From: Cyanobacteriota bacterium
GTDB lineage: Bacteria > Cyanobacteriota > Cyanobacteriia > Thermostichales > Thermostichaceae
NCBI GenBank assembly: GCA_033764955.1
Contig: JANRIL010000042.1
Location: 96,001 to 160,000, forward strand
Direction: 5' to 3'
Length of the DNA: 64,000 nucleotides
This document shows positions 8,190 through 34,694 of this stretch, piece by piece (position 1 is the stretch's first letter; each line of letters begins with the position of its first letter). The position numbers and the translations under genes were made by a program. A model generated the notes under the pieces. That model saw only the letters and a list, made by a program, of their open reading frames with translations, ran no database searches and had not been told where the DNA came from.

Positions 8190-8370
8190 GCGGAGATGAG
8201 CGGGAAGAGCTGACTGGCCTGATGAAGATCTGATGGAACCTTAATGGGAGGATGCAAAAGAGAGATAGCCGGGAAATTTCCTTTGGTAAACTGAGTGATG
8301 ATTAGTATTTTTTGCCGCTACTCGTCCTTTCACCAACCCTTTACCTGTCCTTTCACCAAGTTGAGATTTT

Positions 8371-8733
8371 GTGAGCACTGTTTTAGTTGTTGAAGATAGC
8401 ACAACCGAATTAGAGATTATCAGCCGTTGCTTGCAACAAGCGGGCATGGCCGTAATTAGTGCCAAAAGCGGAGAAGAAGCTCAGACAAAATTGGCATCCC
8501 AGCAACCGGATTTGATTGTTTTGGATGTGATTTTGCCGGGTCAGAGTGGATTTGAGCTATGTCGAGAACTGCGCGCCGACAGCAAAACCTCCGGGATCCC
8601 GATTATTATTTGCTCCACCAAGGGAACCGATGTAGACAAAATGTGGGGAGATATGCTGGGAGCCAATGCCTACTTGACTAAGCCTATTGATCAGGCGGAA
8701 TTGGTTGCAGCCGTGCGCCGCTTGATTAAATAG
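8371..8733 (+). CDS. CheY-like single-domain response regulator (PixH/PilH-type)
   Basis: VLVVEDS, LDVILP, YLTKP; position in chemosensory operon. Confidence 0.92.
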   Translation: MSTVLVVEDSTTELEIISRCLQQAGMAVISAKSGEEAQTKLASQQPDLIVLDVILPGQSGFELCRELRADSKTSGIPIIICSTKGTDVDKMWGDMLGANAYLTKPIDQAELVAAVRRLIK

Positions 8734-8821
8734 TTCGGCTCTCCCTCGATTTTGTCCATTTTCTCAACCTAGCTCTCCCCAAAACGGCTGTTTCTCCCCC
8801 ATCTCTTGAGGCCATGTTGTT

Positions 8822-9316
8822 ATGGAATCTGCCTTGGCGACTCCGGCCACCGGAACGCGCTTTTTGCGGTTTTCGGTTGGTCTTGCCGAACAAGCCCTTT
8901 TATCGGTTGATCACATTCAGGATGTTTTTCCTTTGGTGATCGGAGAGATTTTGCCGATGCCGGAGGTAGCAACGGCTGTGATGGGTCTCTATAATCGGCG
9001 GGGATCCATTCTCTGGCTAGTGGACTTGGGCTACCTGCTGGGATCCCCCCCAGTAGCGACCCACTCCGCCACCACCAGTGGCTCTTTGATGACGATCACT
9101 CTAGATGTGGATCAGCAGGGGTTGGGGTTGGTGGTGCCACAGGTGCAAGATATTGAATGGCAAGATCCACAGGCTATTCAGTCGGAGCTGAGGGGGGTTT
9201 TCACTCCAGAAGTAGCTCAGTTTTTGCAGGGTTATCTTGTGGATGCTGATGCCTCTATCTTGATGGTTTTAGATCCGTTGGCACTGCTGCAAAGCAATCA
9301 ATGGCAATCGATTTGA
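8822..9316 (+). CDS. cheW: CheW adaptor
   Basis: PMPEV...MGLYNRRGSILWLVDLG CheW pattern. Confidence 0.88.
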   Translation: MESALATPATGTRFLRFSVGLAEQALLSVDHIQDVFPLVIGEILPMPEVATAVMGLYNRRGSILWLVDLGYLLGSPPVATHSATTSGSLMTITLDVDQQGLGLVVPQVQDIEWQDPQAIQSELRGVFTPEVAQFLQGYLVDADASILMVLDPLALLQSNQWQSI

Positions 9317-9575
9317 TTTCCCACCCATGCGGGCAATCTCGCCAGTATATTTTGAATAAGGATTTGGATTATTAGATCCTTTTTGATAAAGAATTTAGGG
9401 ATCCTATTCTTGTCAACTATTACCCAAATATTATGTGCCTATATTTTGAGCGTCAGTTCTCGAAAACCCAATCAAAAACTCAATAGGGTTGCTGTGGATC
9501 CCCTTCACGTCAAGACCCATTTAACAACATTTTATTGAGTCTAGTTTTTTCCATCATCCACCAAGGACACCCACC

Positions 9576-12410
9576 ATGACTGCTCTTTATCAATCGGATA
9601 GCCAGCCGTTGACTCAGACATCCCCTACCGAATCACCCGTAGAAATGCGGGATTGGTTGGCGGCGCTTGAGGCGATTCGCTCTGAACTGAATCGTTCTCG
9701 AACCCTAGAGGATCCCGAATTGCGGGAGCGATTTCATCACCTCGACCTACAAACCCAACGGTTGCAACATCAGGTGAGTGGTGTGATGCAGACGGCTGGA
9801 GCGGAGTTGTTTCGGGCGGAACGGGAACAATTGGCTCGCTTGGTCAACCCGATGCGGCAGGCTCCCGATATCTCCTCTCTCCTCAATACCTGTGTGGGGT
9901 TGATCCGCGATCAGTTGGGGGCGGAACGGGTGCTGATTTTTCGCTTTGGCAACGAACGGCAGGGATCCGTGGTCGCAGAGGCGATGGAGCAGGGCTGGAC
10001 TCCCGCCTTGGGGGAGAGCTTGCCCATCACCACCTTTGGTTTGGATGTGAGCAGCGAGTTTTTACGCTTTCCCCTCCTCAAGATGGATGATGTCAGTCAA
10101 GCCGGACTCACCCCCTATCAACGGCAACTGCTGGATCGCTTTCAGGTGAAGGCACAACTGGTGCTGGTCATCCGCGTGGCTGGGGATCCCTGGGGATTGT
10201 TGGTGGTGCAGCGCTGTCTCAAGCCGATCCTCTGGTCGGAGGCGGATCTGAGTTTACTGTCGCAGGTGGTGACCGAACTGACGCTACTGCTGCAACCCTT
10301 AGAAAGCCAAGCCGAGAGCGAGGCCAAAATCCTCTGGGAGCGTAACCTCAGCGATCTCTTAGGTAAAATGCTCGATCAAATCCGGCAGACCGCCTCGATA
10401 GAGCAGGTATTTAAGAGCATCACCGGTGATTTGCGCTCCCTCCTCAAAACGGATCGCGTGGCAATTTATCGCTTTAACCCCAACTGGAGTGGCCAATTTG
10501 TAGCGGAATCGGTGGCAGCAGGCTGGGTAAAATTGGTGGGGCAGGATGTCAACGATACCTACTTCACCGAAACCCAGGGATCCACCTATCGGCAGGGGCA
10601 GAGTCTGGTGGTTCACGACCTCGCCCAATCGGGGCATTCCGCCTGCCATCGGGAGTTGATTGAACAATTCCAGGCCAAAGCCTATGTCGTCGTGCCGATT
10701 TTGCAGGGGGATACCCTCTGGGGTTTGTTGGCGGCCTATCAAAACGCCCACCCTCGCCAGTGGCAGGTAGCCGAAATCAGTCTGCTGCAACGGGTGGGAT
10801 CCCAGTTGGGAGTAGCAGTGGATCTGGCGGCCTCCCTCAAAGAGGCGCAGCGGCAGGCAGAACGGGAACAAACCCTCACCAAAATTGTTGATCGCATCCG
10901 CCAATCCCTGGATCCGGATCCCATTTTCAAATCCACCACCCAGGAAGTGCGGCAACTGCTCACCTGTGACCGCGTCGCCCTCTATCAATTTAAGGAAGAC
11001 TGGAGCGGTGAATTTGTGGCTGAATCAGTGGCAGGGGGCTGGGTCAAGCTGCTGGGGAGCCAGGTCAAAGACAGCTTCCTGGAGCGCACCCAAGGAGGAC
11101 GCTACGTTCATAATGAGTACCAAGCCGTAGATGACATCTACGCCACTGGATTTGATGCCTGCCACCTGCAATTGTTGGAGCAATTCCAGGCGCGTGCCTA
11201 TGTGATTGTGCCCGTCTTGCAGGGAGACAAACTGTGGGGCTTATTGGCGGCCTATCAAAACAGCACCACCCGCCATTGGGAAGAGTCGGAAATCAACCTG
11301 TTGATGCAGATCGGATCCCAGTTTGGCCTGGCGCTACAGCAGGCGGAGTATCTCAACCAGTTGCGTCTGCAATCGGAACAGCTAGCCGAGGCCGCCGCCC
11401 GCGAAAAAGCGGCCAAAGAACAACTGCAACAGCGAGCCATTCAACTGCTGGTGGCGGTACGCCCGGTTTTTAACGGAGATTTGACGGTGCGTGCCCCGAT
11501 TACCGAAGACGAGGTGGGAACGATTGCTGATGCCTACAACAACACCATCCAAAGCCTGCGGAAATTAGTGGTGCAGGTGCAGACCGCCGCTAGCCAGGTG
11601 GCCGACACCATTTTGGCGGGTGAAAGCGCCATGACCGGACTCTCCGCCCAAGCCCGTCAACAGCTAGAGGAGCTGACCCAAGCCCAGAACGAGATGCAGG
11701 CGGCGGTTACGTCAACCCAGGCCGTGGTCAGCAATGCAACCCAAGTGGAAGTGGCGGTGCAACAAGCCAACCAAACTCTGCAAGCGGGGGATCGCGCCAT
11801 GAACCGAACGGTGGATGGCATCTTGGCGATTCGCGATACGGTGTCGGAAACTAGCAAAAAAATCAAACGCTTGAGCGAGTCTTCCCAAAAAATCTCCAAG
11901 GTGGTCAGCCTGATTGGCAACTTTGCCACCCAAACCAACTTGCTTGCCCTAAACGCTGCCATCGAAGCCACCCGTGCGGGGGAATATGGACGGGGATTTG
12001 CGGTAGTGGCGGATGAAGTGCGTTCCCTAGCCCGCCAGTCAGCGGCAGCGACGGCGGAGATCGAAAAGCTGGTGCAGGAGATCCAGATGGAAACCAGCGA
12101 AGTGACCGCCGCCATGGAGACTGGCATCCAACAGGTGGTGGAGGGGACCTCGTTGGTGAATGAAACCCGCCAGAGCTTGAATGATATTGTGGCTTCTACG
12201 GCTCAGATCAGCCAGTTGGTACAGCAGATTACCCACGTTACCGCTCGGCAGGAGCAGCAGGCGCAGGTGGTTACCGATACCATGACGGATGTGGCCTCGA
12301 TTGCCAGCAAAACCTCAGCCGATTCTGATCAAATTGCCCAGTCCTTCTCTCACCTCTTAAAAATGGCCGAGGCACTGCAAGCCAGTGTGGGTCAATTCAA
12401 GGTGGAGTAG
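9576..12410 (+). CDS. Soluble methyl-accepting photoreceptor: 3 GAF (2 cyanobacteriochrome-type), HAMP, MCP domain (PixJ/PtxD-like)
   Basis: GAF2 and GAF3 carry CH bilin-attachment motifs (C357, C529); MCP core [31 protein letters not shown]; no TM helix. Confidence 0.92.
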
Positions 12411-12566
12411 CGCCGGCATTCCTCTCGTATGGATAACCCTTTCCCCAGGGATGGTTGGAGGCAATTTCGCCAACGGGCGCGTGCCCTCAAGCAACGCTCA
12501 CGAGCGGTGCCCCGCCGACCGACTTTCTGCCATCCCGCTTCCCCTCACCCTCGGAGTACCTCCCCT

Positions 12567-15500
12567 ATGGCGATGGATCCCCATATTGTTGATCAGGGCT
12601 ATATGTACTTCCTGATGGAAGCCCCCGAACTGCTGCAAACCCTAGAGCAGGAGTTAGTCAGTCTCAGCCAAGAAAAAACTGTGCCCAAGGTTCACAGTCT
12701 GATGCGAACGGCTCACACCCTCAAGGGATCCGCTGCCAGTGTGGGGCTAGAGACGATCAAGACGGTAGCGCACTATCTGGAGGATGCTTTCAAAGCCCTT
12801 TACAGCCCAGAGATCGAGATCGACAGCTCATTGGAGATGTTGCTGTTGCAGGGCTACGACTGTTTGCGGATCCCCTTGATGGCAGAGTTGCAGGGATCCC
12901 AGGTGGATGAGGTAGAGATTCTGGATCGAGCCGCCACGGTGTTTGCTCAACTGCAAGAGAAACTGGGGGATTTTATGGGTCAGGAAGCCCATATCCCCAC
13001 GTCGGTGGAGCTGGGGTTTGATATTGCCCAATCGATTTTTGAAGTGGGGGTGGGACAACGCTTGCAGGATCTAGAGGCGCTGTTGCAGGAACCGGATCCC
13101 GCGGTGGTGGAGGTGGGTTTGCGCTCCCAACTGGAGGTGTTTGTGGGGCTGGCGGAATCTCTCGATTTGCCAGGATTTGGGGCAATTGCCCAGACCACCC
13201 TAGCGGCTCTCGATGCCCATCCCGATCAGGTGCTGGCGATTGCTCAGGTGGCCGTGGCCGATCTCAAACAGGCGCGGGCGGAGGTTTTGGCGGGGGATCG
13301 CCACCGTGGTGGGGATCCCTCAGCCGCACTCCTGGCTTGGTTGCTACCCCCAATGACCGAATCTGTCCAGCCAGCACCCCCCCCTGGCCACGATTTGCTG
13401 ATCCTGCCCACAACTCTCCCGCCGTTACCGGAGCTTCTGCCCCCACTACCTCCGGATCCCGATCCGATTGACTCCTTGCTTAGCGAAATTGATGCCCTGG
13501 TCAGTCAAGCGACCCAGCAAACCGCCAGCTTGGATCCTCCCCCTCCGGCTCCTCCCTCCCTGGAGTCGATCCCTCCCCTGCCCGCTCCCCCCTCCCTAGA
13601 AGCCATGTTTGCGGGCTTGGCGACGGGATCCCTATCCGATTTACCCCTCGATTTGCCCTCCAATTTATCCCCCGATTTACGATCTCATTTGCCGACGACG
13701 ACTGCATCGGTGGCTCCTCAACCCCTGGCGGATCCTCCCTCGCTGGAGGCCATGTTTGCTGGACTGGCTCCTCCGCTCCCCCCTTCCCCAAATCCAGGGA
13801 TGCCCTCAGTACTTCCTGAGTTGAAGCCTGAGTTGGCTGAACCCGCTAATTTGCCGGTGATTTCATCGGATTTACCCAAAAACTCACTGCCTCCTCCCTC
13901 TGGGATCCCTGATCTCCCCATTGCGGATCTGGCTCCTGCCACAGCCTCTTCCCCCGCCCCAAGCTCACCACCGGCGGCGAGTTCAACCTCCCTCGTACTT
14001 TCCCAAATCTGGGGATCCTTCGCCGCGACGGCTCCTAGCCAGAACCTTGTGATCGCCGATCCACCCCCCCTAGAGGCCAAATTTGCCCCACCCACCCAGC
14101 CCACCCAGCCCCGTCCCTCCGTGCGCGTAGATGTGGAACTGCTGGAGCGGCTCAACAACCTGGTAGGGGAACTGCTGATCAACCAAAATCGGCAGGCTCT
14201 CCAAAACCAAAACCTGCAACAGGGGGTGCAACAATTGCTCACCCGCCTCAGCCACCACCAGCAAACCCTGGCTCGCCTTCAGGAAGTCTCCGATCAATCT
14301 TGGATCTTGCCCTCCCTCCAGCCCCGCGATCAGAGCACCCAGCAACCCCTCACTTGGCAACAACTGGCTCGTTGGGGATCCCAGGCCAACTTTGACCAAC
14401 TGGAACTGGATCACTACAGCGACCTTCAGCTCATCCTGCAACAGGCTTTTGAAGAATGGGTGCATCTGCAAGAAGCCAGCGACGCCATCGACCTATTTGC
14501 GCGGGAAGCCAACCAAACCCTGGAAAAGCAACAGCGCATGTTGACCAGTGTGCGGGATGATGTCATGCAGGCGCGCATGTTGCCCCTGGCGGAACTGTTC
14601 AATCGATTTCCCCGCATGCTGCGGGAGTTATCCGCTAAATATGGCAAGTCTGTCGATTTGCAGATGGTGGGCAGCGAAGTTTTAGTGGATAAAGCCGTTC
14701 TGGAAAAACTCTATGAACCCCTCCTTCACCTGATCCGCAACGCCTTTGACCACGGCATCGAACCCCCCGCTACCCGCCGTGCCCAGGGCAAACCGGAAAA
14801 AGGGCGGATCATGCTGCGCGCCCACTCCCAAGGGGGACGTACCCACATCCAGGTCAGCGACGATGGCCAAGGCTTACCTATCGAGCGAATTCGGCAACGG
14901 GCGGTCGAAAAAGGCTTGTTATCCGCCTCTCAAGCCCAATCTCTGCCCCTGCCCCAACTATTTGACATTTTATTTGAACCGGGCTTCTCCACCGCCGAGC
15001 AGGTGAGCGAACTTTCCGGTCGGGGAGTCGGGTTGGATGTGGTGCGGGATCAACTGCGCCACCTGAAAGGAACCGTTAGCGTTTCCTCTCAACCTCAGCA
15101 GGGATCCAGCTTCACCCTGCAAATTCCCCAAACCCTCACCATCGCCAAGCTGCTAGTCTGTCAATCTGGGCAACGGGTTTATGCCTTTCTCTCGGATGGC
15201 ATCCAACAAATCCTCATCCCCAAATCAGACCAGATGCAAACCACCCGTGGGCAAAAAGTCCTGCAATGGGGATCCACCCTCGTGCCCGTTCGCGCCCTCT
15301 CTACCCTCCTCACCTATACCTATCCGCTGCCACAGGCACAACCCTCCGTGGAAGCTGGCTCTTCCTCTCCTCTCTTGCTCCTCCACGATCAACACCGCCA
15401 TCTGGCTCTAGAGGTAGAACAACTGCTAGGCGAACAGGAACTGGTGATCAAACCCCTCGGCAACGTAATCACTCCCCCCCCCTACGTCTATGGCTGTAGC

Positions 15501-16028
15501 ATCTTGGGGGATGGTCGGCTAGCGCTGGTGGTGGATAGCATTGCCCTCATGCAGCAGATCTTGCGCCCGATTGCCCCCGCCCCCCGCCTCACTGCCCCCG
15601 ATCGACTTGCCTTGGCTGCCCCATCCCGCTCCAGTCAACTGTTATTAGTGGTGGATGACTCGATCACCCTGCGGCAAACCCTCAGCGCCACCCTCCAGCG
15701 GGCAGGATACCAGGTCATTCAAGCCCGCGATGGTCGAGAAGCCCTCGAGCAACTGCGGCAAAACCCCACCATTCAGATGGTGATCTGCGATGTAGAGATG
15801 CCCCACATGAATGGCTTTGAATTCCTTAGTCACTGCCAAAAAAGCGGATCCCTCCAGCAGTCTCCGGTGGTCATGCTCACCTCCCGCAGCGGCGATAAGC
15901 ATCGGCAAATGGCAATGACGTTGGGAGCCTCCGCCTATCTCAGCAAACCCTACCTAGAACACGAACTGCTCGCCACCCTCCAGCAGGTGCTAACTCCTCA
16001 GCCCAGCTCACCCCCCCTCTCTCTATGA
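12567..16028 (+). CDS. cheA: CheA-type hybrid kinase (Hpt, Pro-rich linker, dimerisation, HATPase, CheW, REC)
   Basis: AHTLKG Hpt, HLIRNAFDHGIE, SGRGVGLDVV, C-terminal REC; ATG 12567 with GGAG RBS preferred over ORF start 12429. Confidence 0.93.
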   Translation: MAMDPHIVDQGYMYFLMEAPELLQTLEQELVSLSQEKTVPKVHSLMRTAHTLKGSAASVGLETIKTVAHYLEDAFKALYSPEIEIDSSLEMLLLQGYDCLRIPLMAELQGSQVDEVEILDRAATVFAQLQEKLGDFMGQEAHIPTSVELGFDIAQSIFEVGVGQRLQDLEALLQEPDPAVVEVGLRSQLEVFVGLAESLDLPGFGAIAQTTLAALDAHPDQVLAIAQVAVADLKQARAEVLAGDRHRGGDPSAALLAWLLPPMTESVQPAPPPGHDLLILPTTLPPLPELLPPLPPDPDPIDSLLSEIDALVSQATQQTASLDPPPPAPPSLESIPPLPAPPSLEAMFAGLATGSLSDLPLDLPSNLSPDLRSHLPTTTASVAPQPLADPPSLEAMFAGLAPPLPPSPNPGMPSVLPELKPELAEPANLPVISSDLPKNSLPPPSGIPDLPIADLAPATASSPAPSSPPAASSTSLVLSQIWGSFAATAPSQNLVIADPPPLEAKFAPPTQPTQPRPSVRVDVELLERLNNLVGELLINQNRQALQNQNLQQGVQQLLTRLSHHQQTLARLQEVSDQSWILPSLQPRDQSTQQPLTWQQLARWGSQANFDQLELDHYSDLQLILQQAFEEWVHLQEASDAIDLFAREANQTLEKQQRMLTSVRDDVMQARMLPLAELFNRFPRMLRELSAKYGKSVDLQMVGSEVLVDKAVLEKLYEPLLHLIRNAFDHGIEPPATRRAQGKPEKGRIMLRAHSQGGRTHIQVSDDGQGLPIERIRQRAVEKGLLSASQAQSLPLPQLFDILFEPGFSTAEQVSELSGRGVGLDVVRDQLRHLKGTVSVSSQPQQGSSFTLQIPQTLTIAKLLVCQSGQRVYAFLSDGIQQILIPKSDQMQTTRGQKVLQWGSTLVPVRALSTLLTYTYPLPQAQPSVEAGSSSPLLLLHDQHRHLALEVEQLLGEQELVIKPLGNVITPPPYVYGCSILGDGRLALVVDSIALMQQILRPIAPAPRLTAPDRLALAAPSRSSQLLLVVDDSITLRQTLSATLQRAGYQVIQARDGREALEQLRQNPTIQMVICDVEMPHMNGFEFLSHCQKSGSLQQSPVVMLTSRSGDKHRQMAMTLGASAYLSKPYLEHELLATLQQVLTPQPSSPPLSL

Positions 16029-16561
16029 CACCCACCCCTGCCCCAGACTTCCTCAAGGTGATCACCTTCACCGTGGCATCCCAACCCTTAGCCCTCCCCC
16101 TAGCCCAGGGCAAAGACAGCCCTTTTCCCGTTGTGCAACGGGTGATCCATAGCCCCGTCAGTCTGAACCACCATCCTCTACAACTGCTGCATTGGGAAGA
16201 TCAGGATGTGATCATTCTCAATCTGCACAGCCTATCCACCCCTGCTCAGGCGATCCCCCCCTTCTTAATTTTGGTGCAGACCCCCAACCAAGAATGCTAT
16301 GGGATCCCGGTTAGCGATCCCCCTAGCCTACTCGAACTCCCCCTTGCAACCATCCGCCCCCTGCCCCCCTCCTATGCCCAAAGGGATCCCCTCGGCATGG
16401 CCAGCTATATCGCCGTGTTACCCCAAAGCGGGGATCCCCTCATTCTCTTTTTGCTCGATCTCAACCGCGCGCTCCAGGTTTTAAGCCAGCCTCCCACTCC
16501 TCCATCCGGCTTATCCCCCGCCGCTGGCTCCCCCCCAACCAGGGATCCCTTCCTCCTCTAA
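16025..16561 (+). CDS. CheW-like protein
   Basis: ATGA overlap with cheA; F...LALPL...YGIPV...LFLLDL pattern typical of the terminal CheW of cyanobacterial taxis operons. Confidence 0.75.
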   Translation: MTPTPAPDFLKVITFTVASQPLALPLAQGKDSPFPVVQRVIHSPVSLNHHPLQLLHWEDQDVIILNLHSLSTPAQAIPPFLILVQTPNQECYGIPVSDPPSLLELPLATIRPLPPSYAQRDPLGMASYIAVLPQSGDPLILFLLDLNRALQVLSQPPTPPSGLSPAAGSPPTRDPFLL

Positions 16562-18087
16562 TGGGCGACTATTTCAGGGAGAGATTGAAAAGTATGGGGA
16601 TGCCAGATGGGTAAATCAAAATAAAAGGTTGTGCCTTGGTTTACCACCGAATCAAAACCAATGTGTCCCCCCAGTTTTTCGACAATGGCTTTACTGATAC
16701 TCAACCCCAAGCCCGTTCCGCCCCGTTGGCGAGTATTTGAAGAGTCTGATTGAGCAAATTTCTGAAAAATATAGCTGCGAAATTCCTCAGAGATCCCACA
16801 GCCTTGGTCAATAACTGCCACCCGACAAAATGACCCTTGCTGCGAAACTACCACTTTGACCACACTATCAGGGGGAGAAAACTTAGCCGCATTGGAGAGT
16901 AAATTGGTCAACACCTGCAAAAGGCGATTGCTGTCAGCATTCACCCAGACATCCGGATAACCCGGTTCGAGATCTACCCTCACGCCATATTGCGCCGCAA
17001 AAGCCAGATTGGCCTCAACCGACTGTTGAATAATAGGCACCAAAGCCATTGGCTGAACGTTAAATTCCATGCGACCGGCTTCAATCTTTTCGATATCCAA
17101 AATATCGTTGATCAACAGTACCAATCGTTCGCTACTGCGATAGGCAATCTCGGTTAGCGCACGGGCTTGGGCGGGTAACTCTCCCAAAACCCCTCCCACA
17201 ATTAACCCTAAAGCTCCCCGAATTGAGGTGAGGGGGGTTCTCAGCTCGTGGCTGACGGTGGAAACAAATTCATTTTTGAGACGGTCAATCTTTTTCCGTT
17301 CGGTGATGTCTTCCACCAAACCCTCGTAATGATGTAGGGTGCCCCCCTCGCCATAGACAGCGCGTGCGCTTTGAGCAATCCAAATAATTCGTCCATCTTT
17401 GCGATAAACCTGGGATTCCAGGCGGGATACCTGTCCTTTTTCTTGCAAAAGGCGAATGAATCGATGATGGTCTTCCGGTTCCAAATAAAAAAGTTGGGGC
17501 ACGCGATCACGGGAATGCTCTACCATTTCACTTGGAGATGGATAGCCATAAATACGAGCCATCGCATAATTGACATCAATATAATTGCCGTCGGGAGCGA
17601 TCTGACACATCCCTTCCATCGCATTTTCAAAAATTCCGCGATAACGAGCTTCGGCTTTGTGTAAACTGGCTTCTACCGTATCTCCATGTTCGGTGGTAGT
17701 TTCCAAAATTAACTCTAAATCGGCTTTGCTGCGGCTCAATTCTTCCGCTTTTTCGTAAAGATGATCCTCCACCAAATCCCCATGCTGGGTGGTGGTCTCT
17801 AATAAAAGTTCCAGATCGGTTTTGGTCAAATATAGTTCTTCGGTGGTGGAATGCAGGTCTTCCTCAACCGCATCCCCATGCTCAGTGGTGGTTTCCAGCA
17901 GGATCTCCAGATCCAGTTTTTCCTGTTGAAGCCTATCAAGTTCTCCCCGTAAACGCTCAAGATCCTGGACAAGGGCGGCTTTTTCTTGAGTCAGCTTGGC
18001 TACCTCAAGTTTGAGATCTTCCATTTTGAGCAGGAGATCCTTCTTAAGGGGCTTTTTGCCTGATGGATGGGGCGATTTAGCAGACAC
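16558..18087 (-). CDS. Soluble PAS sensor histidine kinase with three N-terminal 32-aa 'LE.LLETTT.HGD.VE' repeats
   Basis: SHELRTPLT H-box, NLLSNAAKF, GGTGLGL; PAS/PAC (RKDG..IW..EDITERK); start is GTG and uncertain. Confidence 0.9.
   Translation of the reverse strand: MSAKSPHPSGKKPLKKDLLLKMEDLKLEVAKLTQEKAALVQDLERLRGELDRLQQEKLDLEILLETTTEHGDAVEEDLHSTTEELYLTKTDLELLLETTTQHGDLVEDHLYEKAEELSRSKADLELILETTTEHGDTVEASLHKAEARYRGIFENAMEGMCQIAPDGNYIDVNYAMARIYGYPSPSEMVEHSRDRVPQLFYLEPEDHHRFIRLLQEKGQVSRLESQVYRKDGRIIWIAQSARAVYGEGGTLHHYEGLVEDITERKKIDRLKNEFVSTVSHELRTPLTSIRGALGLIVGGVLGELPAQARALTEIAYRSSERLVLLINDILDIEKIEAGRMEFNVQPMALVPIIQQSVEANLAFAAQYGVRVDLEPGYPDVWVNADSNRLLQVLTNLLSNAAKFSPPDSVVKVVVSQQGSFCRVAVIDQGCGISEEFRSYIFQKFAQSDSSNTRQRGGTGLGLSISKAIVEKLGGHIGFDSVVNQGTTFYFDLPIWHPHTFQSLPEIVAH
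17659..17919 (-). repeat. Three tandem 96-nt (32-aa) intragenic repeats
   Basis: KLDLEILLETTTEHGDAVEEDLH / KTDLELLLETTTQHGDLVEDHLY / KADLELILETTTEHGDTVEASLH; His at aa 70, 102, 134. Confidence 0.92.
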
Positions 18088-18116
18088 AGATCAGCGCAGC
18101 CTCACGGAAGGCACAA

Positions 18117-18461
18117 CTATTCTAGTTCCAAGATCATGCTGGGGAGGAGACGTTGCAGATTTTTTAGAGATTTGCCCTGCCAAGGAATCAGCTTGGATCC
18201 CTGAACGATGATTTTTAGGCTACCCTGCTGTCGGATTTTGAGAACAAACTTAGAGAGCATGTTAATGCCAGAACTGTTGAGAAATTGCAGATCCCGCAGA
18301 TCCAACTTGAGAGATTCCTGCTGTTGGTCGGCAGCATCCCCTAAGAGCTGAGCTACGGGGGCATATTCTTCTGTGCCCGCTAGCCGTAGGGATCCCTGGC
18401 AAACCACCGTTCCCGCTTCGGCATCGTAGTAAACGTAATAGTCGTCAGTCTTAATTTCCAT
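18117..18461 (-). CDS. STAS-like anti-anti-sigma/partner-switch protein (Slr1659-like)
   Basis: GSLRL...LDLRDLQFLNSSGI: STAS-type motif with candidate phospho-Ser (N62-S63-S64-G65). Confidence 0.78.
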   Translation of the reverse strand: MEIKTDDYYVYYDAEAGTVVCQGSLRLAGTEEYAPVAQLLGDAADQQQESLKLDLRDLQFLNSSGINMLSKFVLKIRQQGSLKIIVQGSKLIPWQGKSLKNLQRLLPSMILELE

Positions 18462-18533
18462 GCTGCAACGGCTCCTTGATTATGTCTTGCTATTCATTCG
18501 CATGATCGAAATGGGTGAGACTGGGGTAAAACC

Positions 18534-19094
18534 TTAGAGGGTTTCCGCGAGAAGTTGCACCATGGTGGTGACGGCCACCGTCTCGATATTATTGCGCTGA
18601 ATCGTCTCAAACTTCCAGCCCAATTCGGCCTGATAGTCGTTGATCATCGTCAGATATCCCAACCCAGACTGCCCCGATTCATCCGGCTCTTCGATACGCT
18701 TAACATAGAGATCCCCTGGATCAGAGGTGCTCAACTCCTGGATAAACTCCTGAAATCCTCCCACTTTAGCAGGGGCAATCGAGTTCGTGGTTAAAAAGAT
18801 CAAGTGATGGGTGTTGACATAGAGGGCAATCGTAATCGAATCACCCGTCCGATCATCGTTATATTTCATGGCATTTTCAATCAGTTCATTGGCAATAAAG
18901 CTGATGGCACTTTTGACAGGGGCAGCAATCTCACCAGGGAAGAACGTCGCCATGTAGTCCGCCATAAAATCAGCCGACAATCCACTCGTACTCCATCGTT
19001 CCTTGAGGGGAACCGAGCTAGGGGAGAACCTGAGAATTAAATACTCTTCCCCTTTAGGTAAGTCATCTCGAAATTGTCCAAAAATTTGACTCAC
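18534..19094 (-). CDS. Anti-sigma-kinase-like GHKL protein (Slr1658/SiaB-like)
   Basis: N-box ELIENAMKY and G2-like SGLGYLTM, with no His-kinase dimerisation domain; GTG start with GAGG RBS. Confidence 0.75.
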   Translation of the reverse strand: MSQIFGQFRDDLPKGEEYLILRFSPSSVPLKERWSTSGLSADFMADYMATFFPGEIAAPVKSAISFIANELIENAMKYNDDRTGDSITIALYVNTHHLIFLTTNSIAPAKVGGFQEFIQELSTSDPGDLYVKRIEEPDESGQSGLGYLTMINDYQAELGWKFETIQRNNIETVAVTTMVQLLAETL

Positions 19095-19150
19095 GGGAAC
19101 CTCTCAAATAGGGGAGTAATCAAAGAGTATAAAAGGATAGCTCTTGCCAT

Positions 19151-19900
19151 TCATTGCCGTTTTAATACCAATACCGTGATATCGTCATAAACCTTCTGAG
19201 TGCCAATGTAGTTTCGCACATCTTGAATCACTTTTTCACGAATCTGTTGGGAGGGATCCCCCCAACAGTCCACGATGATTTGGCAAAGGCGATCAACCCA
19301 TGAGGTTCTCCCGCCGGATTTTCCGCTTCCGGGATGCCGTCAGTATAAAGCACGAGGCCATCCCCTACCTCCAAAAACAGTTGAGTCTGCCCAATAAAAA
19401 GCGAGATATCCATCTCTAGACCAAGCAGAAAGCCCAAGTCTATGGTGTCAATCCGCTCCATCATTCGATTGACTCCCACCAATACCATCTCCTCGTGTTG
19501 TCCTGTTAACCATAAATGCCCTTCGTAATAATCCAGCAAAGCCAGGGTTAAGTTTTTGTCGGAATTCATCCGTTGCAGGTTTTGGTAGATGGTTTGGTTG
19601 AGGGTGCTGAGAAACTTGATGGGATCCCTTTCCTGATTGACCAGTAGGGTACGCACCGCCGTTTGAACCATGATCGTCTTCAGCGCTGAGTCGGAGGTTC
19701 TCGTGCTTGAGCCGCTCGTTTAAGATAGTGATTGCTTGGTTGGCTTGGGCAAGCTGCTGGAGGGTCTCCGGCAAGGCCACTTCTGCTAGTTTGCGCTCTG
19801 TAATATCCTCGACCGCACCTAATAATACAAACGCCGATCAGCAGCGTCACAAATGTTGTGGGCACTCTCAGAAATCCAGACCCGTTTGCCATCCTTACAG
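19151..19900 (-). pseudogene. Degraded PAS/PAC-SpoIIE (PP2C) phosphatase
   Basis: Fragments in several frames: PAC (KDGKRVWISESA...EDITERK), coiled coil ENLRLSAE, about 60 codons missing, MVQTAVRTLL...YTDGIPEAEN, frameshift near 19295, then QKVYDDITVLVLKRQ-stop; paralogous to 20978..22966. Confidence 0.88.
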
Positions 19901-20054
19901 TTGATCCAACTGAAAAATCCTCCCTCTATCACCCATACAGTAAGCTCTTAGGAAATCCAGACCAAGGGACTGACCGAGGCGGGCGATAGACTGAAGACGA
20001 CCCTTTCAGCGAGTGGTCGGGATCCTATTCATCTAGCCACCCCATAACCTGCTG

Positions 20055-20097
20055 TGTGATTTGTATCATTTCATGCTGGGGTGATGACAGATATACT
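20055..20097 (+). promoter_or_regulatory. Putative CRP-family site with class II promoter for the diguanylate cyclase
   Basis: TGTGA-N6-TCAtt (20055-20070) and TATACT -10 (20092-20097), placing the site centre near -41.5. Confidence 0.4.
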
Positions 20098-20172
20098 GAA
20101 GAAGATGGGTAGTATAAGTTACACGGGGTGGCGCAGCTTTCGTGTTTTCCCGGTGGCAATTGTGGAGTCTCT

Positions 20173-21006
20173 ATGAGCCAGTCTCATCGCAAAAAAGCTC
20201 CCCTGAAAAAGGAGCTTATCGCTCAAGTGGAGGAGTTGCGATCCGCCAACCAGCAGTTGATCAAAGATTATCAAGTTTTACTCAAGCAGTACCAGGGCTT
20301 AGAAGAGCAGTTGCAAAAGGAAATAACCGAACGCCAGAGTGTTGAAGCTCAACTACGGCAGGAGTTGGAAAAAGCCCTCAGCGACAAAGCCAACCTACAA
20401 ATCGAGCTGGAAGTGAGTGTTTCCCACGGTGATGCCGTAGAAAGTCAACTCCAAGAGGATGTTGCCCTGGCGCGCTCAGCCGCTTATCTCGATGGTCTGA
20501 CGCAAATTGCCAATCGTCGCAAGTTTGATGAGTATCTGCCCAAAATGTGGTCACAAATGATCCGTGAGCAAACCCCCATTTCCTTGCTCATGTGTGATGT
20601 AGATTACTTCAAACTTTACAACGACTTTTATGGGCACTTAGCGGGGGATCATTGCCTGCAACAGATTGCGAAAGTTTTGGCAAAGGCTGTCAAACGTCCG
20701 CTGGATCTGGTAGCTCGCTATGGAGGGGAAGAATTTGTCGGGATTCTCCCCAACACCACCAGCCAGGGATCCCTACAAGTCTGCCAACAAATTCAAGCGG
20801 ATTTAGCTACCCTCAAACTGCCCCATCTGCGCTCGCCGGTCAGTGAGTTTGTTACCCTCAGCATGGGGCTGGCGACCACAATTCCTAGCCAGGGATCCCC
20901 TTGGAATATCTTGATTACCTCCGCCGATCAGGCTCTCTACCGAGCCAAATCCCAAGGACGCAACCAAGTTTTTGCCACTACTTTTGTTTCAAGACTAATA
21001 GGGTGA
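20173..21006 (+). CDS. Diguanylate cyclase with N-terminal coiled coil and one HGD motif
   Basis: DGLTQIANRR, DVDYFKLYND, I-site RPLD, intact GGEEF; ATG 20173 after GGAG. Confidence 0.92.
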   Translation: MSQSHRKKAPLKKELIAQVEELRSANQQLIKDYQVLLKQYQGLEEQLQKEITERQSVEAQLRQELEKALSDKANLQIELEVSVSHGDAVESQLQEDVALARSAAYLDGLTQIANRRKFDEYLPKMWSQMIREQTPISLLMCDVDYFKLYNDFYGHLAGDHCLQQIAKVLAKAVKRPLDLVARYGGEEFVGILPNTTSQGSLQVCQQIQADLATLKLPHLRSPVSEFVTLSMGLATTIPSQGSPWNILITSADQALYRAKSQGRNQVFATTFVSRLIG

Positions 21007-22966
21007 TGTCATCGAAAACTTTTTGTTGACCAATGTGCTGACGCAGATCCTCAACAATTGCTTTGCGGATCCCTTGGGCGGATTGGTAACGATGGTGCCG
21101 GATTACCTCGCATAATCGTTCCAACCCATATTGTTGATGATTGAGATTTTCGGCTTCTGTGATGCCATCTGTGTATAAGACAACGATATCACCCTGATAA
21201 AGAAATACTTCTCGATGATCAATAAAGTCAATGATTTCTGGCTCTAGACCCACCGGAAAACCCAGATCAATCGTATCAATTCGCTCAGTGTTTCCATCAG
21301 CACGAACTAAAATCATTTCTTCATGTTGCCCAGTTAGTTGCAACAACCCTTTTTGGTAATCCAGTAGAGATAATGTCAGGTTTTTATCCGATTGCATCCG
21401 TTGAACATTGCCATAGATCGCTTGGTTGACGGCGTTGAGAAATTGCTTGGGATCCTTTTCATCACTAGCCAGAAGGGTTCGCACCGCCATCTGCACCATA
21501 ATCATCAAGACTCCGCTTTCTAACCCATGTCCGGTCACATCCCCGATTCCAATCTTCAGGCGTTCTCCCTGGCGAATCACATCATAATAATCACCCCCTA
21601 CTTCAGTGGCTGACTCCATAAAGCCAGCGATTTCTAAATCGGGGATTTGGTTCAGTTCTTCATCTCTGGGTAGGATCAATTGCTGAATTTTGCGGGTGAC
21701 TTCTAGCTCAGTAGAGAGACGGGCATTTTCTGCCTCTAGGCTGCGATTGAGGGAGTGAATTTGTTGGTAGGCATTAGCTAAATTGGTGGCAATTAAGTTA
21801 AAGGATCGCACCACCTGACCCAATTCATCCTGATTTTCTAAGTTTAAGTTTCCTTGATAGTTCTCCTCAACCATTTGTTTAGAGGCAACATCCAAAGCAG
21901 CAACTGTTTGAGTAACGCTCAGATAAAAAGCAATAAAGAGATAAGTCACCAACAACAAAATGATTGACAAAAATATAAAGACAAACCATTTTCGCTGCTG
22001 AAATCCTAATATTCTTAATTGTAGTAGCTGATCCATTTCGTTAGTCGTCTGCTGCCAAAAGGCAAAACTCTCTCCCAATATCTCCTGGGAAAGCTGGGCA
22101 TAAAGATGCGCGTCTGGCTGATTTAGGGGATTAATCAACAGTAGAATTTCCGAACTAAGTTTTTGACTTTGATCAGAAAAACTGGCTGCCTCTGATCGAA
22201 GACTGAGATCAATAGTCTTGCGAATATTTTGAGCAAAGGCAACATTGATCGCTTGATCCAGTTCATGTCGATAACGCTCCAGCAAAACAGCTAAACTGAT
22301 TAGGCGAGAGCGTTCTTCTAAGCTAACAAAGTTTTGAGCAATAGCTTCCTCCGCCAAGCTATGAATATCTTGCAGAAGAATCTGCATGTCTGGGATTTTA
22401 ATTAGTAGGGCATCCATCAAATAGTAGGTGTCTAGATCAGGATCTAGGATCAAATTGGATACATCCCCAACCTTTCGGATTAACCGATGGGTTTGATCAG
22501 TTAGCTCTTGATAAAGGTAGTCATAGGTAACGGGGCTGAGGCTAGATTCTAGAAGATTTTGTCGATTTTGATCAAGTTTTACCAGTTCGTCTTGAATATC
22601 AAGCACCGAATTGAGGGATTGATCGACGGTGGCTATTGCCCTCAGTTGTTCTTCTAATCGCTTTAAGTCGAGTAGTCTTTGATCAGGATTGGGAACTTGA
22701 TAGAGTTCGATACGATTTTGACCTATTTGTTCAAGGAGCTGACTGATGGGACGCAAATAGGTGGTTCCATAAATCTCCATCTGAGAAAAATGAATACGGC
22801 TATTAATTTCAGAAATCAATAAATAAACAAATAAAGTAACGGGCAGCAGAAAGAGTAAGCTAATAACAGAAAATTTCTGAAGATATTTTAGGTGATTGAG
22901 AAAACGAATCGCAGGTCTAAAAATACTCAGAGAACCCATAGAAGTTCCTTGACTGATAGCAATCAT
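20978..22966 (-). CDS. Membrane sensor PP2C/SpoIIE phosphatase (TM, periplasmic helical domain, TM, HAMP, PP2C)
   Basis: VGGDYYD, GDVTGHG, YTDGITE, DDITLL motifs; two TM helices; SNLILDPDLDTYYLMD sensor motif. Confidence 0.92.
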   Translation of the reverse strand: MIAISQGTSMGSLSIFRPAIRFLNHLKYLQKFSVISLLFLLPVTLFVYLLISEINSRIHFSQMEIYGTTYLRPISQLLEQIGQNRIELYQVPNPDQRLLDLKRLEEQLRAIATVDQSLNSVLDIQDELVKLDQNRQNLLESSLSPVTYDYLYQELTDQTHRLIRKVGDVSNLILDPDLDTYYLMDALLIKIPDMQILLQDIHSLAEEAIAQNFVSLEERSRLISLAVLLERYRHELDQAINVAFAQNIRKTIDLSLRSEAASFSDQSQKLSSEILLLINPLNQPDAHLYAQLSQEILGESFAFWQQTTNEMDQLLQLRILGFQQRKWFVFIFLSIILLLVTYLFIAFYLSVTQTVAALDVASKQMVEENYQGNLNLENQDELGQVVRSFNLIATNLANAYQQIHSLNRSLEAENARLSTELEVTRKIQQLILPRDEELNQIPDLEIAGFMESATEVGGDYYDVIRQGERLKIGIGDVTGHGLESGVLMIMVQMAVRTLLASDEKDPKQFLNAVNQAIYGNVQRMQSDKNLTLSLLDYQKGLLQLTGQHEEMILVRADGNTERIDTIDLGFPVGLEPEIIDFIDHREVFLYQGDIVVLYTDGITEAENLNHQQYGLERLCEVIRHHRYQSAQGIRKAIVEDLRQHIGQQKVFDDITLLVLKQK

Positions 22967-24887: not shown

Positions 24888-27800
24888 ATGGGATCCCTGA
24901 GTGACGCCCAGATGCGTCTGCTGTTTGAAGCGGCAGCGGATCCCTTGTTTGTGATCACCACCCAGGGTCGGATTGTGGATCTGAACCGCGCTGCCTGTGA
25001 GTTGCTGAGGGTGGAGCGCGCGCAGTTGTTGGGTTCCTCCCTGGGGGATTTGGGGATTGCTTCCGAACCCACAAGCTGGATATCCGATGGGCAGAGGGGG
25101 GAACTGAAGCTACTACGGCAAGATGGCTCCTTTGTGGAAGGGGACTATACCCTCACCCCCCATGTCTGGCCGGATCATCACCTGCTGAGTTGGCGGGATG
25201 GCAGTCCCCACCATCCCTGGCGGCAACAATGGCAGGACAGTCAACGCCGATATCAGACCCTCTTTGAAATCTTGCCGATTGGGGTATCGCTAGCTGACTC
25301 TCAGGGCAATCTGATCGCCGCCAACCTAGCCTCGGAGGAAATTTTAGGGATCCCGGTATCTGAGCATACCCATCGCCGTTTGGATACTCCCGATTGGCAA
25401 ATCCTTCATCCCGATGGTCGCAAAATGTCACTGGAAGAACTGCCTGCTAGCCAAGCCCTGCAAAACCAGCAAGTCGTGACCGATGTTGAGATGGGGGTTA
25501 TGCGCCCCGATGGATCCCTGCGATGGCTGCATGTGAATGCCGCGCCGCTTCCCCCACCCAATCAGGGGGTGGTCACTGTCTTTATGGACATCACCGACCA
25601 AAAAGCGGCTCAAGCCAAACTGCGGGAGCAAACCGCCCGTGAACAAGCCCTCAACCGCGTAGTGCAGGCCGTTCACAGCTCCCTAGAGTTGGAGGCTGTC
25701 TTTCGGATTGCCGCCAACCAAGTGGCCGAGATTTTTCAAACGGAAGCCTCCATTGTGCAATATTTGCCGGAGCAGGGTTGCTGGCGACATCTGGTGTTGA
25801 GTGATCAGACTCCAGAGCAGCCCAATCGTCTAATGGCAGGTGACATTCCCGATCAGAATAACCCCTTTGCCGAACGCCTCAAAAACCGTGAGGTTGTTCA
25901 GGTGGAGGACACCACCAGGATTGCTGACCCAATTAACCAAGAGATTGCTCAACGAGTGCCCGGATCTTGGTTGATGGTGCCGATTGTTATGCAAGGGAAG
26001 GTTTGGGGCAGTCTCAGCCAATTTCGTTTTCAACAGATTAGCCACTGGCAACCGGAGGATGTCATGCTCAGCCAACGCATGGCGGATCAGTTGGCGATGG
26101 CGATTCAGCAATCCACCCTTTATCAGCAAATCAAAGAAACCAGCCAACGGGATGCCCTCGTCCTGGAAAGCATTGGGGAAGGAGTTTGGGATTGGGATCC
26201 CCAAACCAATCAGTCCCAGGTTTCGGGGCGCTATTGGCAGATTTTGGGCTATGAGGCCGATCGACCCGGTTACTCCAACTTAGAGCAAGAACATGCCCGC
26301 ATTCATCCCGACGACCTGGATCGGGTCAATGCCGCCATTCAAGCCCATCTGCAAACGGGGCAACGCTTTCATATTGAGTTTCGGGCGCAACATCGTCAGG
26401 GACACTACCTCTGGATCCGCGCCCGTGGACAAGCCATCTGGGATGAGCAAGGCCGTCCCCTGCGGATGTTGGGCAGCATGGAAGATATCAGCGACAAGAA
26501 ACAGATCGAACAGGAATTAGAGCATCGCGCCCAACGGGAACGCCTGCTGCGGGATATCACCCAGCAGATTCGTCAGTCTTTGGAGGTGAGCGTGATTTTA
26601 ACCTCTGCGGTGCAACAGATTCGCCTGATATTAAACGCGGATCGGGTTTTGATCTATCGGTTTCGCCCCGATTGGAGTGGCGACATGATTGCCGAATCCG
26701 TCGCGGATCCCTGGACACCCCTCCTCTCCACCCATTTGATGGATCCCTGTTTTCGGGATGATCTGGTGGTGTCCTATCAACAGGGTCGCCTCAACCGGAT
26801 CCCTGATATTCAAACCGCATCCCTGGCGGAGTGCCATTTCAACTTGCTGAATAATCTGCACGTGCGAGCCAACCTAGTGGTGCCCATCGTCAGCAACGAG
26901 ACCCTCTGGGGGCTGTTGTGTGTGCATCATTGTGCCTTCCCCCATGACTGGCAGGATTGGGAAGTGGAACTGAGCCAGCAAATTAGCGATCAGTTGGGTC
27001 TTGCGATTCACCAGGCGGAGCTGTATCAGCAGGTAAAAACGTTAGCCAGTCATCTGGAAGAACAGGTGCAGGAACGCACTCAACAGATCGAGCAAGCCCT
27101 CAAATTTGAAGCCATTCTCAAAACCATCATCGACCAAGTTCGCCATAGTTTGGATGAGAACCAAATCTTAGCAACGGTGGTGAGGGAATTGGGGGAGGTA
27201 TTGCAGTTAGAGTGTTGCGACACCGGCATTTACAACCCTGATCGCACCACCTCCACGATCACCCATGAATATATCCGCTCCGGCACCTCTGCTAAGGGCA
27301 CCACCTTTTCCATCACCGATACCCCCCACGCCGAGATCCGCTCCTTGGTGTTTTTGGGGATCCCTACCCAATTTTGTGACCTATTGCAGCCCTGCCTGCG
27401 GGAACAACCCATTGGCAAGGTTCGCCTGGTTTGCCCCATTCAGGACGAACAGAACATTCTGGGGGATATGTGGCTGGTCAAACCAACGGCGGATGGCTTC
27501 AGCCCCCAGGAGGTCAGGTTGATCAAGCAGGTGGCCAACCAATGTGCCATCGGCATTCGACAGGCTCGCCTCTATCAAGAAGCCCAGGCTCAGGTGCAGC
27601 GTCTTCAAGAACTCAATCAACTCAAAGAAGACTTTATTCATACGGTATCCCACGAGTTACGCACGCCGTTGACCAGCATGAAAATGGCTATCACTATGCT
27701 AGAAATCAGCAAACCGTCTCCCGAAAAGCAAGATTATTATCTGGCGATTCTCAAGGCGCAATGGAACCGTGAGCTGGCTTTGGTGAACGAACTGCTGGAG

Positions 27801-28310
27801 TTACAAGCCCTGGAATCGGGCACTCGTCCGTTGGTCTTAAGTTGCCTCAATTTGTCTCTCTGGATCCCTCCTTTAGTCGAGCCGTTTCATCTGCGCTGTG
27901 CCGAACGTCAGCAAGCCTTCCAGGTGTTTTTGGATCCCGCCCTTTCCCCCGTCACCACCGATCAAAGTCTCTTGGAAGGGATCCTCCTAGAGCTGCTCAA
28001 TAATGCCTGCAAATATACCCCTCCCCAGCAGCAGATTACCCTAGCCATTCATGCCCTCACCCGTCGCCTGCGAGTGGCGGTGACCAATACGGGGGTGACG
28101 ATTCCTGCCAGCCAATGCTCGCAGATCTTCGATAAATTTCATCGCATCCCCAGCCTGGATCACTACAACCAGGGGGGCACAGGCTTGGGTTTGGCGATGG
28201 TGCGGAAAGTGGTGGATTTGTTGCAGGGATCCCTGACGGTGCAAAGTAGTGGAGGCGTTACCACCTTCTGCGTTGAGCTGCCTTCTCTGGATACCCCCCC
28301 CTATCCATAG
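24888..28310 (+). CDS. Multi-sensor histidine kinase (PAS-PAS-GAF-PAS-DXCF CBCR GAF-GAF-HisKA-HATPase)
   Basis: DPCF (C621) and CH (C649) in one GAF; SHELRTPLT, NNACKY, GGTGLGL. Confidence 0.92.
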   Translation: MGSLSDAQMRLLFEAAADPLFVITTQGRIVDLNRAACELLRVERAQLLGSSLGDLGIASEPTSWISDGQRGELKLLRQDGSFVEGDYTLTPHVWPDHHLLSWRDGSPHHPWRQQWQDSQRRYQTLFEILPIGVSLADSQGNLIAANLASEEILGIPVSEHTHRRLDTPDWQILHPDGRKMSLEELPASQALQNQQVVTDVEMGVMRPDGSLRWLHVNAAPLPPPNQGVVTVFMDITDQKAAQAKLREQTAREQALNRVVQAVHSSLELEAVFRIAANQVAEIFQTEASIVQYLPEQGCWRHLVLSDQTPEQPNRLMAGDIPDQNNPFAERLKNREVVQVEDTTRIADPINQEIAQRVPGSWLMVPIVMQGKVWGSLSQFRFQQISHWQPEDVMLSQRMADQLAMAIQQSTLYQQIKETSQRDALVLESIGEGVWDWDPQTNQSQVSGRYWQILGYEADRPGYSNLEQEHARIHPDDLDRVNAAIQAHLQTGQRFHIEFRAQHRQGHYLWIRARGQAIWDEQGRPLRMLGSMEDISDKKQIEQELEHRAQRERLLRDITQQIRQSLEVSVILTSAVQQIRLILNADRVLIYRFRPDWSGDMIAESVADPWTPLLSTHLMDPCFRDDLVVSYQQGRLNRIPDIQTASLAECHFNLLNNLHVRANLVVPIVSNETLWGLLCVHHCAFPHDWQDWEVELSQQISDQLGLAIHQAELYQQVKTLASHLEEQVQERTQQIEQALKFEAILKTIIDQVRHSLDENQILATVVRELGEVLQLECCDTGIYNPDRTTSTITHEYIRSGTSAKGTTFSITDTPHAEIRSLVFLGIPTQFCDLLQPCLREQPIGKVRLVCPIQDEQNILGDMWLVKPTADGFSPQEVRLIKQVANQCAIGIRQARLYQEAQAQVQRLQELNQLKEDFIHTVSHELRTPLTSMKMAITMLEISKPSPEKQDYYLAILKAQWNRELALVNELLELQALESGTRPLVLSCLNLSLWIPPLVEPFHLRCAERQQAFQVFLDPALSPVTTDQSLLEGILLELLNNACKYTPPQQQITLAIHALTRRLRVAVTNTGVTIPASQCSQIFDKFHRIPSLDHYNQGGTGLGLAMVRKVVDLLQGSLTVQSSGGVTTFCVELPSLDTPPYP

Positions 28311-34519: not shown

Positions 34520-34694
34520 CAATCCTTCCCAAGAAACAGCCGCTAAACGATGGGATCCCAACCCTTCAGCAGCTTCATCGTAACTTCATGAAGTTAATCA
34601 ATACTTGCGTGACTTCACGGAACTTGCCAGCATGAAGAGGGATCAGGGAAGCTACCCAAGTCCTTGCGGTTGGGTTGGAAGGCAGGGATCCCCT

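Follow-up and report, generated by a model that had tools for sequence, protein, structure and literature searches.

A candidate docking repeat may couple an slr1658/slr1659-type phospho-switch to two signalling enzymes in a Thermostichaceae cyanobacterium

We analyzed a 64,000-nucleotide (nt) stretch of DNA from a Cyanobacteriota bacterium of the family Thermostichaceae (GenBank assembly GCA_033764955.1, contig JANRIL010000042.1, positions 96,001 to 160,000 of the forward strand), referred to below as the window. A cassette at 16558..22966 encodes a membrane PP2C phosphatase, a putative serine kinase, a STAS-like protein, a histidine kinase and a diguanylate cyclase. It is probably a partner switch resembling SiaABCD of Pseudomonas aeruginosa, built on the slr1658/slr1659 protein pair, in which a portable docking module replaces the sigma factor. 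That module is a repeat of about 27 residues with the core E-T-T-T-E-H-G-D, found three times in the histidine kinase and once, in diverged form, in the cyclase, with no further copy in the genome. Coordinates are those of the whole window. The genome assembly comprises 48 contigs (89% complete, 51.5% guanine plus cytosine, GC), of which the one carrying the locus is labeled C5; G, L and P numbers are our labels for genomes, loci and proteins. The features are listed here, each with its basis in parentheses.

16558..18087, minus strand: output 1, a soluble histidine kinase of 509 residues with three docking repeats, PAS, HisKA (His280) and HATPase_c (open reading frame [ORF] and domain search, repeat profile)
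17851..17931, minus strand: kinase docking repeat 1, residues 53-79, His70 (repeat profile)
17755..17835, minus strand: kinase docking repeat 2, residues 85-111, His102, 32 residues past repeat 1 (repeat profile)
17659..17739, minus strand: kinase docking repeat 3, residues 117-143, His134, with PAS starting 15 residues on; the copy used for the STAS model (repeat profile and complex model)
18117..18461, minus strand: STAS-like phospho-switch protein of 114 residues, slr1659 superfamily, Ser63 at the SpoIIAA phosphosite-motif position, single copy (hidden Markov model [HMM], alignment)
18534..19094, minus strand: slr1658-family putative serine kinase of 186 residues, SiaB/SpoIIAB/RsbW fold, N-box N69-E70-x-x-E73-N74, single copy (HMM, fold search)
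about 19151..19850, minus strand: broken PP2C gene with a PAS-end remnant ahead of it (comparison with intact paralogues)
20128..21006, plus strand: output 2, a diguanylate cyclase of 292 residues, coiled coil with one diverged repeat, then GGEEF with an RxxD I-site (ORF and domain search)
20374..20454, plus strand: diverged cyclase docking repeat, residues 83-109, His100, with the DxLT motif 22 residues on (repeat profile)
20978..22966, minus strand: membrane sensor phosphatase of 662 residues, transmembrane helix, helical extracellular domain, transmembrane helix, HAMP, PP2C (domain and transmembrane prediction)

An earlier note on this DNA had read the cassette as one serine-phosphorylation switch with two outputs and no sigma factor, and all five of its ORFs are present where it placed them. 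Its domain calls were borne out as well. The phosphatase has two predicted transmembrane helices, a weak HAMP match (E-value 0.019) and a SpoIIE/PP2C domain (E-value 4e-40). The PAS-HisKA-HATPase histidine kinase begins 29 nt past the STAS stop codon, and the opposite-strand ORF is a GGEEF cyclase with an RxxD I-site, for which the ATG at 20173 is a possible alternative start. Catalytic motifs are intact in both the histidine kinase and the cyclase. The genome contains 13 matches to sigma-70 region 2, none of them on contig C5. A promoter and terminator scan gave matches only at chance level.

The kinase-like and STAS-like proteins, whose genes lie 72 nt apart and are each single-copy in the genome, place the cassette in a named family. 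The former, which lacks HisKA as the earlier note had said, scored 231 bits against slr1658_cyano (cut-off 200); by accession, the scores are 231.2 bits for NF052618 (cut-off 200) and 215.4 for NF047703 (cut-off 100). Its N-box is invariant in 42 aligned sequences. Sequence searches of the PDB returned 0 matches, and its placement comes from a fold search with the predicted model (predicted local distance difference test, pLDDT, 90). The best match was SiaB (6kko_B; Z 13.3, root-mean-square deviation 3.3, 148 aligned), in a tie with UsfX (Z 13.1) and followed by SpoIIAB (11.8), with histidine-kinase domains at 6.7 or below. The STAS-like protein reached 157 bits against the slr1659 superfamily (NF047705, cut-off 100), and its gene is adjacent to the slr1658 homologue. 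The N62-S63-S64-G65 motif pointed out earlier aligns with DSSG of SpoIIAA (FLNSSG to FMDSSG; weak, E-value 0.014), and S63 is invariant in 98 sequences. By the family cut-offs, the cassette is thus a member of the slr1658/slr1659 pair.

The N-termini of the histidine kinase and the cyclase are related in sequence, and the kinase copies of the repeat lie 32 residues apart. A repeat profile scored the kinase copies at 47.0, 39.8 and 47.5 bits and the cyclase copy at 19.6 bits; the profile was seeded from loci of other genomes and database matches, possibly including the entry for this kinase but not the cyclase. The next match in the genome scored 7.5 bits, and reversed ORFs of the fetched loci gave 3.2 bits or less. 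The consensus of 519 distinct copies is K-x-D-L-E-I-L-L-E-T-T-T-E-H-[GAS]-D-x-[IV]-E-x-x-L, a count in which the histidine was required; in a separate count, the histidine was 99% conserved. Assignment of the repeat to a known family was considered and rejected: it is covered by no family in Pfam, NCBIfam, PDB or Atlas, where searches gave just scattered matches to coiled coils (in Pfam, involving at most 4 of 50 members per family). An N-terminal K-x-P-L-K-K, common to this kinase and cyclase, was absent from 355 repeat proteins.

The repeat is attached to several kinds of enzyme. It matches 418 clusters at 50% identity, and the best 150 of these were labeled by blastp as GGDEF (43), histidine kinase (30), adenylate cyclase (15), mixed (3), PP2C (2), shorter than 200 residues (30) and other (27), labels that are approximate and were confirmed by Pfam for a subset. 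When 25 of the 27 others were run through Pfam, 21 contained PAS (one with a ParA-like ATPase and two with AAA_35), one was an SDH protease and three had no family. Fusion partners across genomes also include hybrid kinases and GGDEF-EAL, with one to five repeat copies per protein. Among the rarer fusions, P0375, P0311, P0374 and P0378 join the repeat to SDH/ClpP-like serine protease, HTH-PAS-ParA-like ATPase and AAA_35 proteins. Repeat-PP2C fusions occur at L061:6209-7372 (Nostoc minutum) and L130:8346-9386 (Chloroflexia) and could form a feedback loop on the switch. Proteins of about 165 residues that carry the repeat without a Pfam domain lie near STAS genes (L061:8618-9103, L067:12645-13160, L138:1709-2209) and may be decoys or other outputs.

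The occurrence of the repeat follows that of the STAS gene. Among 301 cyanobacterial genomes, the kinase is present in 58, the STAS protein in the same 58 and the repeat in 46, all within those 58, whereas none of the 243 genomes without STAS has the repeat; because related genomes are not independent, these counts are patterns rather than tests. Repeat-bearing frames lie within 5 kilobases (kb) of a STAS gene in 64 of 77 cases (45 genomes). In 25 near relatives, STAS was found in 15 and the repeat in 14 of these; a single-protein query matched nothing in the 10 without STAS. The repeat was also found in 5 of 5 genomes searched, one of them a Thermostichus and the others from Albibeggiatoa, Parabeggiatoa, Poribacteria and Chloroflexia. 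A further set consists of 80 named loci that surround STAS genes (the best 80 of 543); it holds many Microcoleus, includes loci ended by contig ends and may overlap with the other sets. Here, the repeat was present in 53 loci and directly downstream of STAS in 50, and the kinase was present in 48. The 56 repeat ORFs comprised 29 histidine kinases, 13 adenylate cyclases, 4 GGDEF proteins, 2 PP2Cs and 8 others. The earlier note had proposed looking for the five proteins together across cyanobacteria: kinase, STAS and repeat do co-occur, but the five genes form no single conserved unit, with PP2C, kinase and repeat protein together in 17 of the 80 loci and outputs swapped between genomes. Pairs of different repeat outputs are seen in several cassettes (L062, L085, L152, L154, L155), and among 117 related loci, 1 has a sigma factor. 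At L044:4938-5633 and L049:9573-10262, a tandem double-STAS protein stands beside a hybrid kinase-receiver-PP2C fusion, joining a two-component input to the switch.

Structure prediction supports docking of STAS on kinase repeat 3 through the phosphosite. Two copies of kinase residues 108-156 were modeled with two copies of STAS in three runs, alongside 3 controls. The 2:2 complex scored 0.87 and the best control 0.06; 116 of 157 solved pairs attain the score mark, as do 2 of 215 mismatched ones, though these counts are only a rough guide for this job. Contacts agreed at 98% or better between runs, and partner pLDDT was at least 92. In the model, the T-T-T, His, Gly and Asp of the repeat contact STAS L61-S64, I66, N67, S70, S98 and N101, with the histidine and aspartate placed against residues 61-66 at errors below 1 Å. 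Ser63 is buried in the modeled interface beside the repeat aspartate, a position in which a phosphate should not fit.

The position of the repeat relative to the enzymes is also constrained. After removal of near-duplicates, 45 of 46 cases had the last repeat histidine 15, 22 or 36 residues ahead of the DxLT of GGDEF domains (22 in the cyclase here), and 6 of 6 had it 24, 31 or 38 residues ahead of the H-box. Tandem repeats were spaced by 7n+4 residues (25, 32, 39, 46, 53, 60, 67 or 74) in 173 of 180 cases. The heptad pattern thus gains four residues with every repeat while the phase with the enzyme is kept, which is what we would expect of a coiled-coil control element.

Together, these results suggest the following mechanism. 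The slr1658-type protein, judging from its fold and the STAS motif, would phosphorylate Ser63. Membrane PP2C sensors, the adjacent one and probably four paralogues that share the single STAS protein, would remove the phosphate. Two unphosphorylated STAS molecules per site would then clamp the repeat dimer, with Ser63 against the T-T-T-x-H-G-D core, and phosphorylation of Ser63 would block clamping. Based on the conserved register, the clamp may determine which coiled-coil state is adopted by the dimeric enzyme that follows the repeat; by analogy with SiaD, binding seems somewhat more likely to activate that enzyme than to inhibit it. The outputs would be the histidine kinase and probably the diguanylate cyclase here, and, as the observed fusions suggest, adenylate cyclases, hybrid kinases, GGDEF-EAL proteins and PP2Cs in other genomes.

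The intact phosphatase (20978-22966) retains all four metal-site motifs. A sensor PP2C that is 50% identical to it lies upstream of a kinase-STAS-repeat-adenylate cyclase cluster in Microcoleus, which ties this type of PP2C to the switch. Its extracellular domain is a lead only: it resembles NIT nitrate/nitrite sensor clusters in the Atlas (feature score 0.96-0.97, TM-score 0.78), while its own single-sequence model has a pLDDT of 54; no Pfam match (PF08376 or other) was obtained in 6 members, and a PDB sequence search was empty. Directly upstream of the kinase, between it and the cyclase gene, lies a broken PP2C gene absent from the earlier note. About 60 catalytic-domain residues are missing from it, its frame changes twice and it is 60-62% identical to intact paralogues. 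Four further intact paralogues (G000:C5:33121-35250, C5:36341-38329, C36:35184-37013 and C2:27420-29528) carry Cache and/or HAMP domains and are 49-73% identical in the catalytic region. Set against one STAS protein and one kinase, these four paralogues may mean that a single switch gathers many inputs.

Several observations weigh against the proposed switch. No response regulator is tied to the histidine kinase, and the proposal rests on sequence and models. Even at E-values up to 1 (best value 0.05), the repeat goes undetected in 12 of the 58 STAS genomes, which means that the switch acts through other outputs in these (G056, G150, G178, G184, G204, G212, G236, G240, G244, G274, G301 and G317, with kinase and STAS; L140-L150). 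The genomes are kin, and 166 of the 243 negatives belong to 10 families without any match. The complex model covers only kinase repeat 3 and may pass by likeness to SiaC-SiaD, a solved complex of the same kind, although neither the STAS nor the repeat profile matches a Sia structure at E-values up to 10. The 22 STAS interface positions are 90% conserved, compared to 68% for the remaining positions (98 sequences), but this conservation is not fully independent because the STAS alignment was an input to the model. The opposite-strand cyclase separates the intact PP2C from the kinase-STAS pair, so that the phosphatase is probably outside the kinase-STAS-histidine kinase transcript; its gene has 41% GC, lower than the genome, and its sensor domain was seen in 1 of 24 relatives. 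Finally, the cyclase repeat has residues at five core positions that are rare among the 519 repeats (each at most 6%), which makes the cyclase arm less sure.

This last point underlies a narrower version of the switch, in which only the histidine kinase is live here and the cyclase arrived by rearrangement with a decayed repeat that no longer answers STAS. The cyclase reads E-x-E-V-S-V-S where most copies have L-x-E-T-T-T-E, it has one repeat where related cyclases mostly have two, and it lies on the opposite strand beside the broken PP2C. Moreover, the nearest relatives with this kinase type (L054, L151) have no cyclase alongside. Yet the diverged repeat retains H-G-D as well as the flanking leucines, its 22-residue register is preserved, the catalytic motifs of the cyclase are intact, and two-output cassettes recur elsewhere. 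We regard this version as unlikely. The proposal of one STAS switch with two outputs gains support from the N-terminal repeat that both outputs carry and that tracks the STAS gene and models onto the phosphosite, with the cyclase as the less certain arm.

The earlier note had assigned the cassette a role in motility or aggregation together with the adjacent taxis operon (PatA-CheY-CheW-(GAF)3-MCP-CheA-CheW, 6966-16561; MCP, methyl-accepting chemotaxis protein). The cassette does directly adjoin that operon, cyclic diguanylate (c-di-GMP) commonly governs motility and aggregation, and the orphan histidine kinase could signal to a receiver of the CheY or PatA type. However, the two units are tail to tail rather than co-directional, with the stop codons of the histidine kinase and the cheW-like gene overlapping by 4 nt. 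CheA, MCP, CheW or PatA genes were present in 0 of 117 related loci, and cheA is unlinked where contigs allow a check: a homologue is more than 100 kb from the STAS and kinase genes in G014 and about 40 kb in G011. The adjacency looks local, and we rejected it as conserved context. The one slr1658 phenotype reported (PMC7555055, PMC6525291) concerns recovery from iron starvation and pgr5 overexpression. A shared function in taxis seems doubtful, and less probable than the loss of the cyclase arm. Elsewhere in the window, the GAF-rich MCP of the taxis operon may be a photoreceptor resembling PixJ; a large PAS/GAF histidine kinase without an adjacent response regulator lies at 24888-28310; and the ORF at 33860-34561 has a spaced His/Glu pattern that resembles a hemerythrin-like domain.

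We consider it improbable that the repeat is no STAS dock at all, its threonines being substrates of the slr1658-type kinase or its His/Asp pair binding metal in the dimer while STAS only holds the kinase: kinase and STAS occupy the identical 58 genomes, so that their shared distribution does not reveal with which of them the repeat works, and the histidine is 99-100% conserved with threonine common at three positions, but 20-40% of copies have Ile, Ala, Met or Val in place of the threonines, the model places the His and Asp on the STAS phosphosite region, and in many Microcoleus loci a STAS gene without an adjacent kinase gene still directly precedes the repeat protein.

The new element in the proposed switch would be the portable docking repeat, which, going by fusions and modeling, links it to several enzyme classes. 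We lean slightly toward a broader claim: that the repeat is an undescribed plug-in input domain through which one Ser-phosphorylated STAS protein, under several membrane PP2C inputs, sets histidine-kinase, cyclic AMP and c-di-GMP output side by side, with feedback on repeat PP2Cs, defining a sigma-free branch of partner switching in cyanobacteria, Beggiatoaceae, Chloroflexia and Poribacteria. It would also supply the missing step downstream of Slr1658, and as a graft of 27 residues it could bring further dimeric enzymes under the control of phosphorylation. According to PMC8256260, most non-canonical STAS proteins have targets that are not known; SiaD is the solved example we found of a cyclase stalk clamped by a STAS-like protein. 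A docking module defined by its sequence would predict the targets of slr1659-type switches in any genome and would widen the predicted reach of STAS control to histidine kinases and adenylate cyclases. A literature search, with subscription journals mostly outside its range, found no description of the repeat and no reading of slr1658/slr1659 as a Sia-like switch; the main text of PMC13712970 does not contain slr16xx, DUF6272 or SiaB, though its supplement may list such clusters.

In Synechocystis PCC 6803, the corresponding genes are slr1657-slr1658-slr1659; the kinase and STAS protein described here pass the slr1658 and slr1659 cut-offs. A table in PMC10124867 lists Slr1657 as 'XXX-GGDEF' and gives its N-terminus no name, and G047 has a repeat-repeat-GGDEF protein, the kinase and STAS in a row. 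PMC7555055 and PMC6525291 call slr1658 a putative two-component gene whose signalling chain is not known and report that pgr5 rises roughly a thousandfold in slr1658 mutants. Our analysis predicts that Slr1658 acts through Ser phosphorylation of Slr1659 on the Slr1657 cyclase, which would bear on that rise.

Canonical partner switches (RsbU/RsbW/RsbV, SpoIIE/SpoIIAB/SpoIIAA) likewise use a PP2C phosphatase, a GHKL serine kinase and a STAS protein with a conserved Ser motif, and the same components occur in cyanobacterial NfsS/NfsR, Slr1861/Ssr1600, HmpUWV and HenR/All4160. In the canonical switches, the kinase holds a sigma factor, whereas here STAS itself is the predicted effector, acting on a separate repeat-bearing enzyme. 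In HenR/All4160, STAS is fused to its own output (bioRxiv 10.64898/2026.04.08.717354), and the HmpV target is described as unknown in PMC8256260. The signalling helix (PMC1592074) is, like the repeat, a parallel coiled coil of about 30-40 residues before kinases, cyclases and PP2Cs. Unlike that helix, the repeat has the ERT signature in 0 of 111 copies, is restricted to STAS genomes and is usually N-terminal with no sensor ahead of it.

The closest functional parallel is SiaABCD, comprising the PP2C SiaA, kinase SiaB, STAS-like SiaC and cyclase SiaD (PDB 6KKO, 7E6G; PMC8457831 and PMC7647112). Both have a HAMP-PP2C sensor, a SiaB-fold kinase, a small STAS-like phosphoprotein and no sigma factor, and in both the switch protein (here by prediction) clamps repeated motifs on a dimeric stalk via the phosphosite. 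According to PMC8457831, SiaC binds two SiaD stalk motifs 32 residues apart through N67/T68/S69, and DUF1987 proteins are proposed to modulate adjacent proteins generally; the spacing of 32 residues is the same in SiaD and this histidine kinase. Homology of the repeat to the SiaD motif was considered and rejected: the repeat profile did not match 7E6G at E-values up to 10, and a stalk profile aligned only from the DxLT region onward, which leaves the register equivalence unfixed. The proteins also fall short of the Sia families: the PP2C scores 64.7 bits against NF038263 (cut-off 700) despite the common transmembrane-HAMP-PP2C layout, the kinase 20.7 against NF038262 (cut-off 85) despite the SiaB fold, and the cyclase 138.7 against NF038266 (cut-off 290). 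The STAS protein, with Ser in place of the Thr site of SiaC (DUF1987), reaches 16.4 bits against PF09345 (cut-off 24.5) and 15.9 against NF038265 (cut-off 150). Thus, the cassette is predicted to work like SiaABCD but is no member of it by family cut-offs, and, unlike in the Sia system, its docking module is joined not just to GGDEF proteins but also to histidine kinases, adenylate cyclases and PP2Cs.

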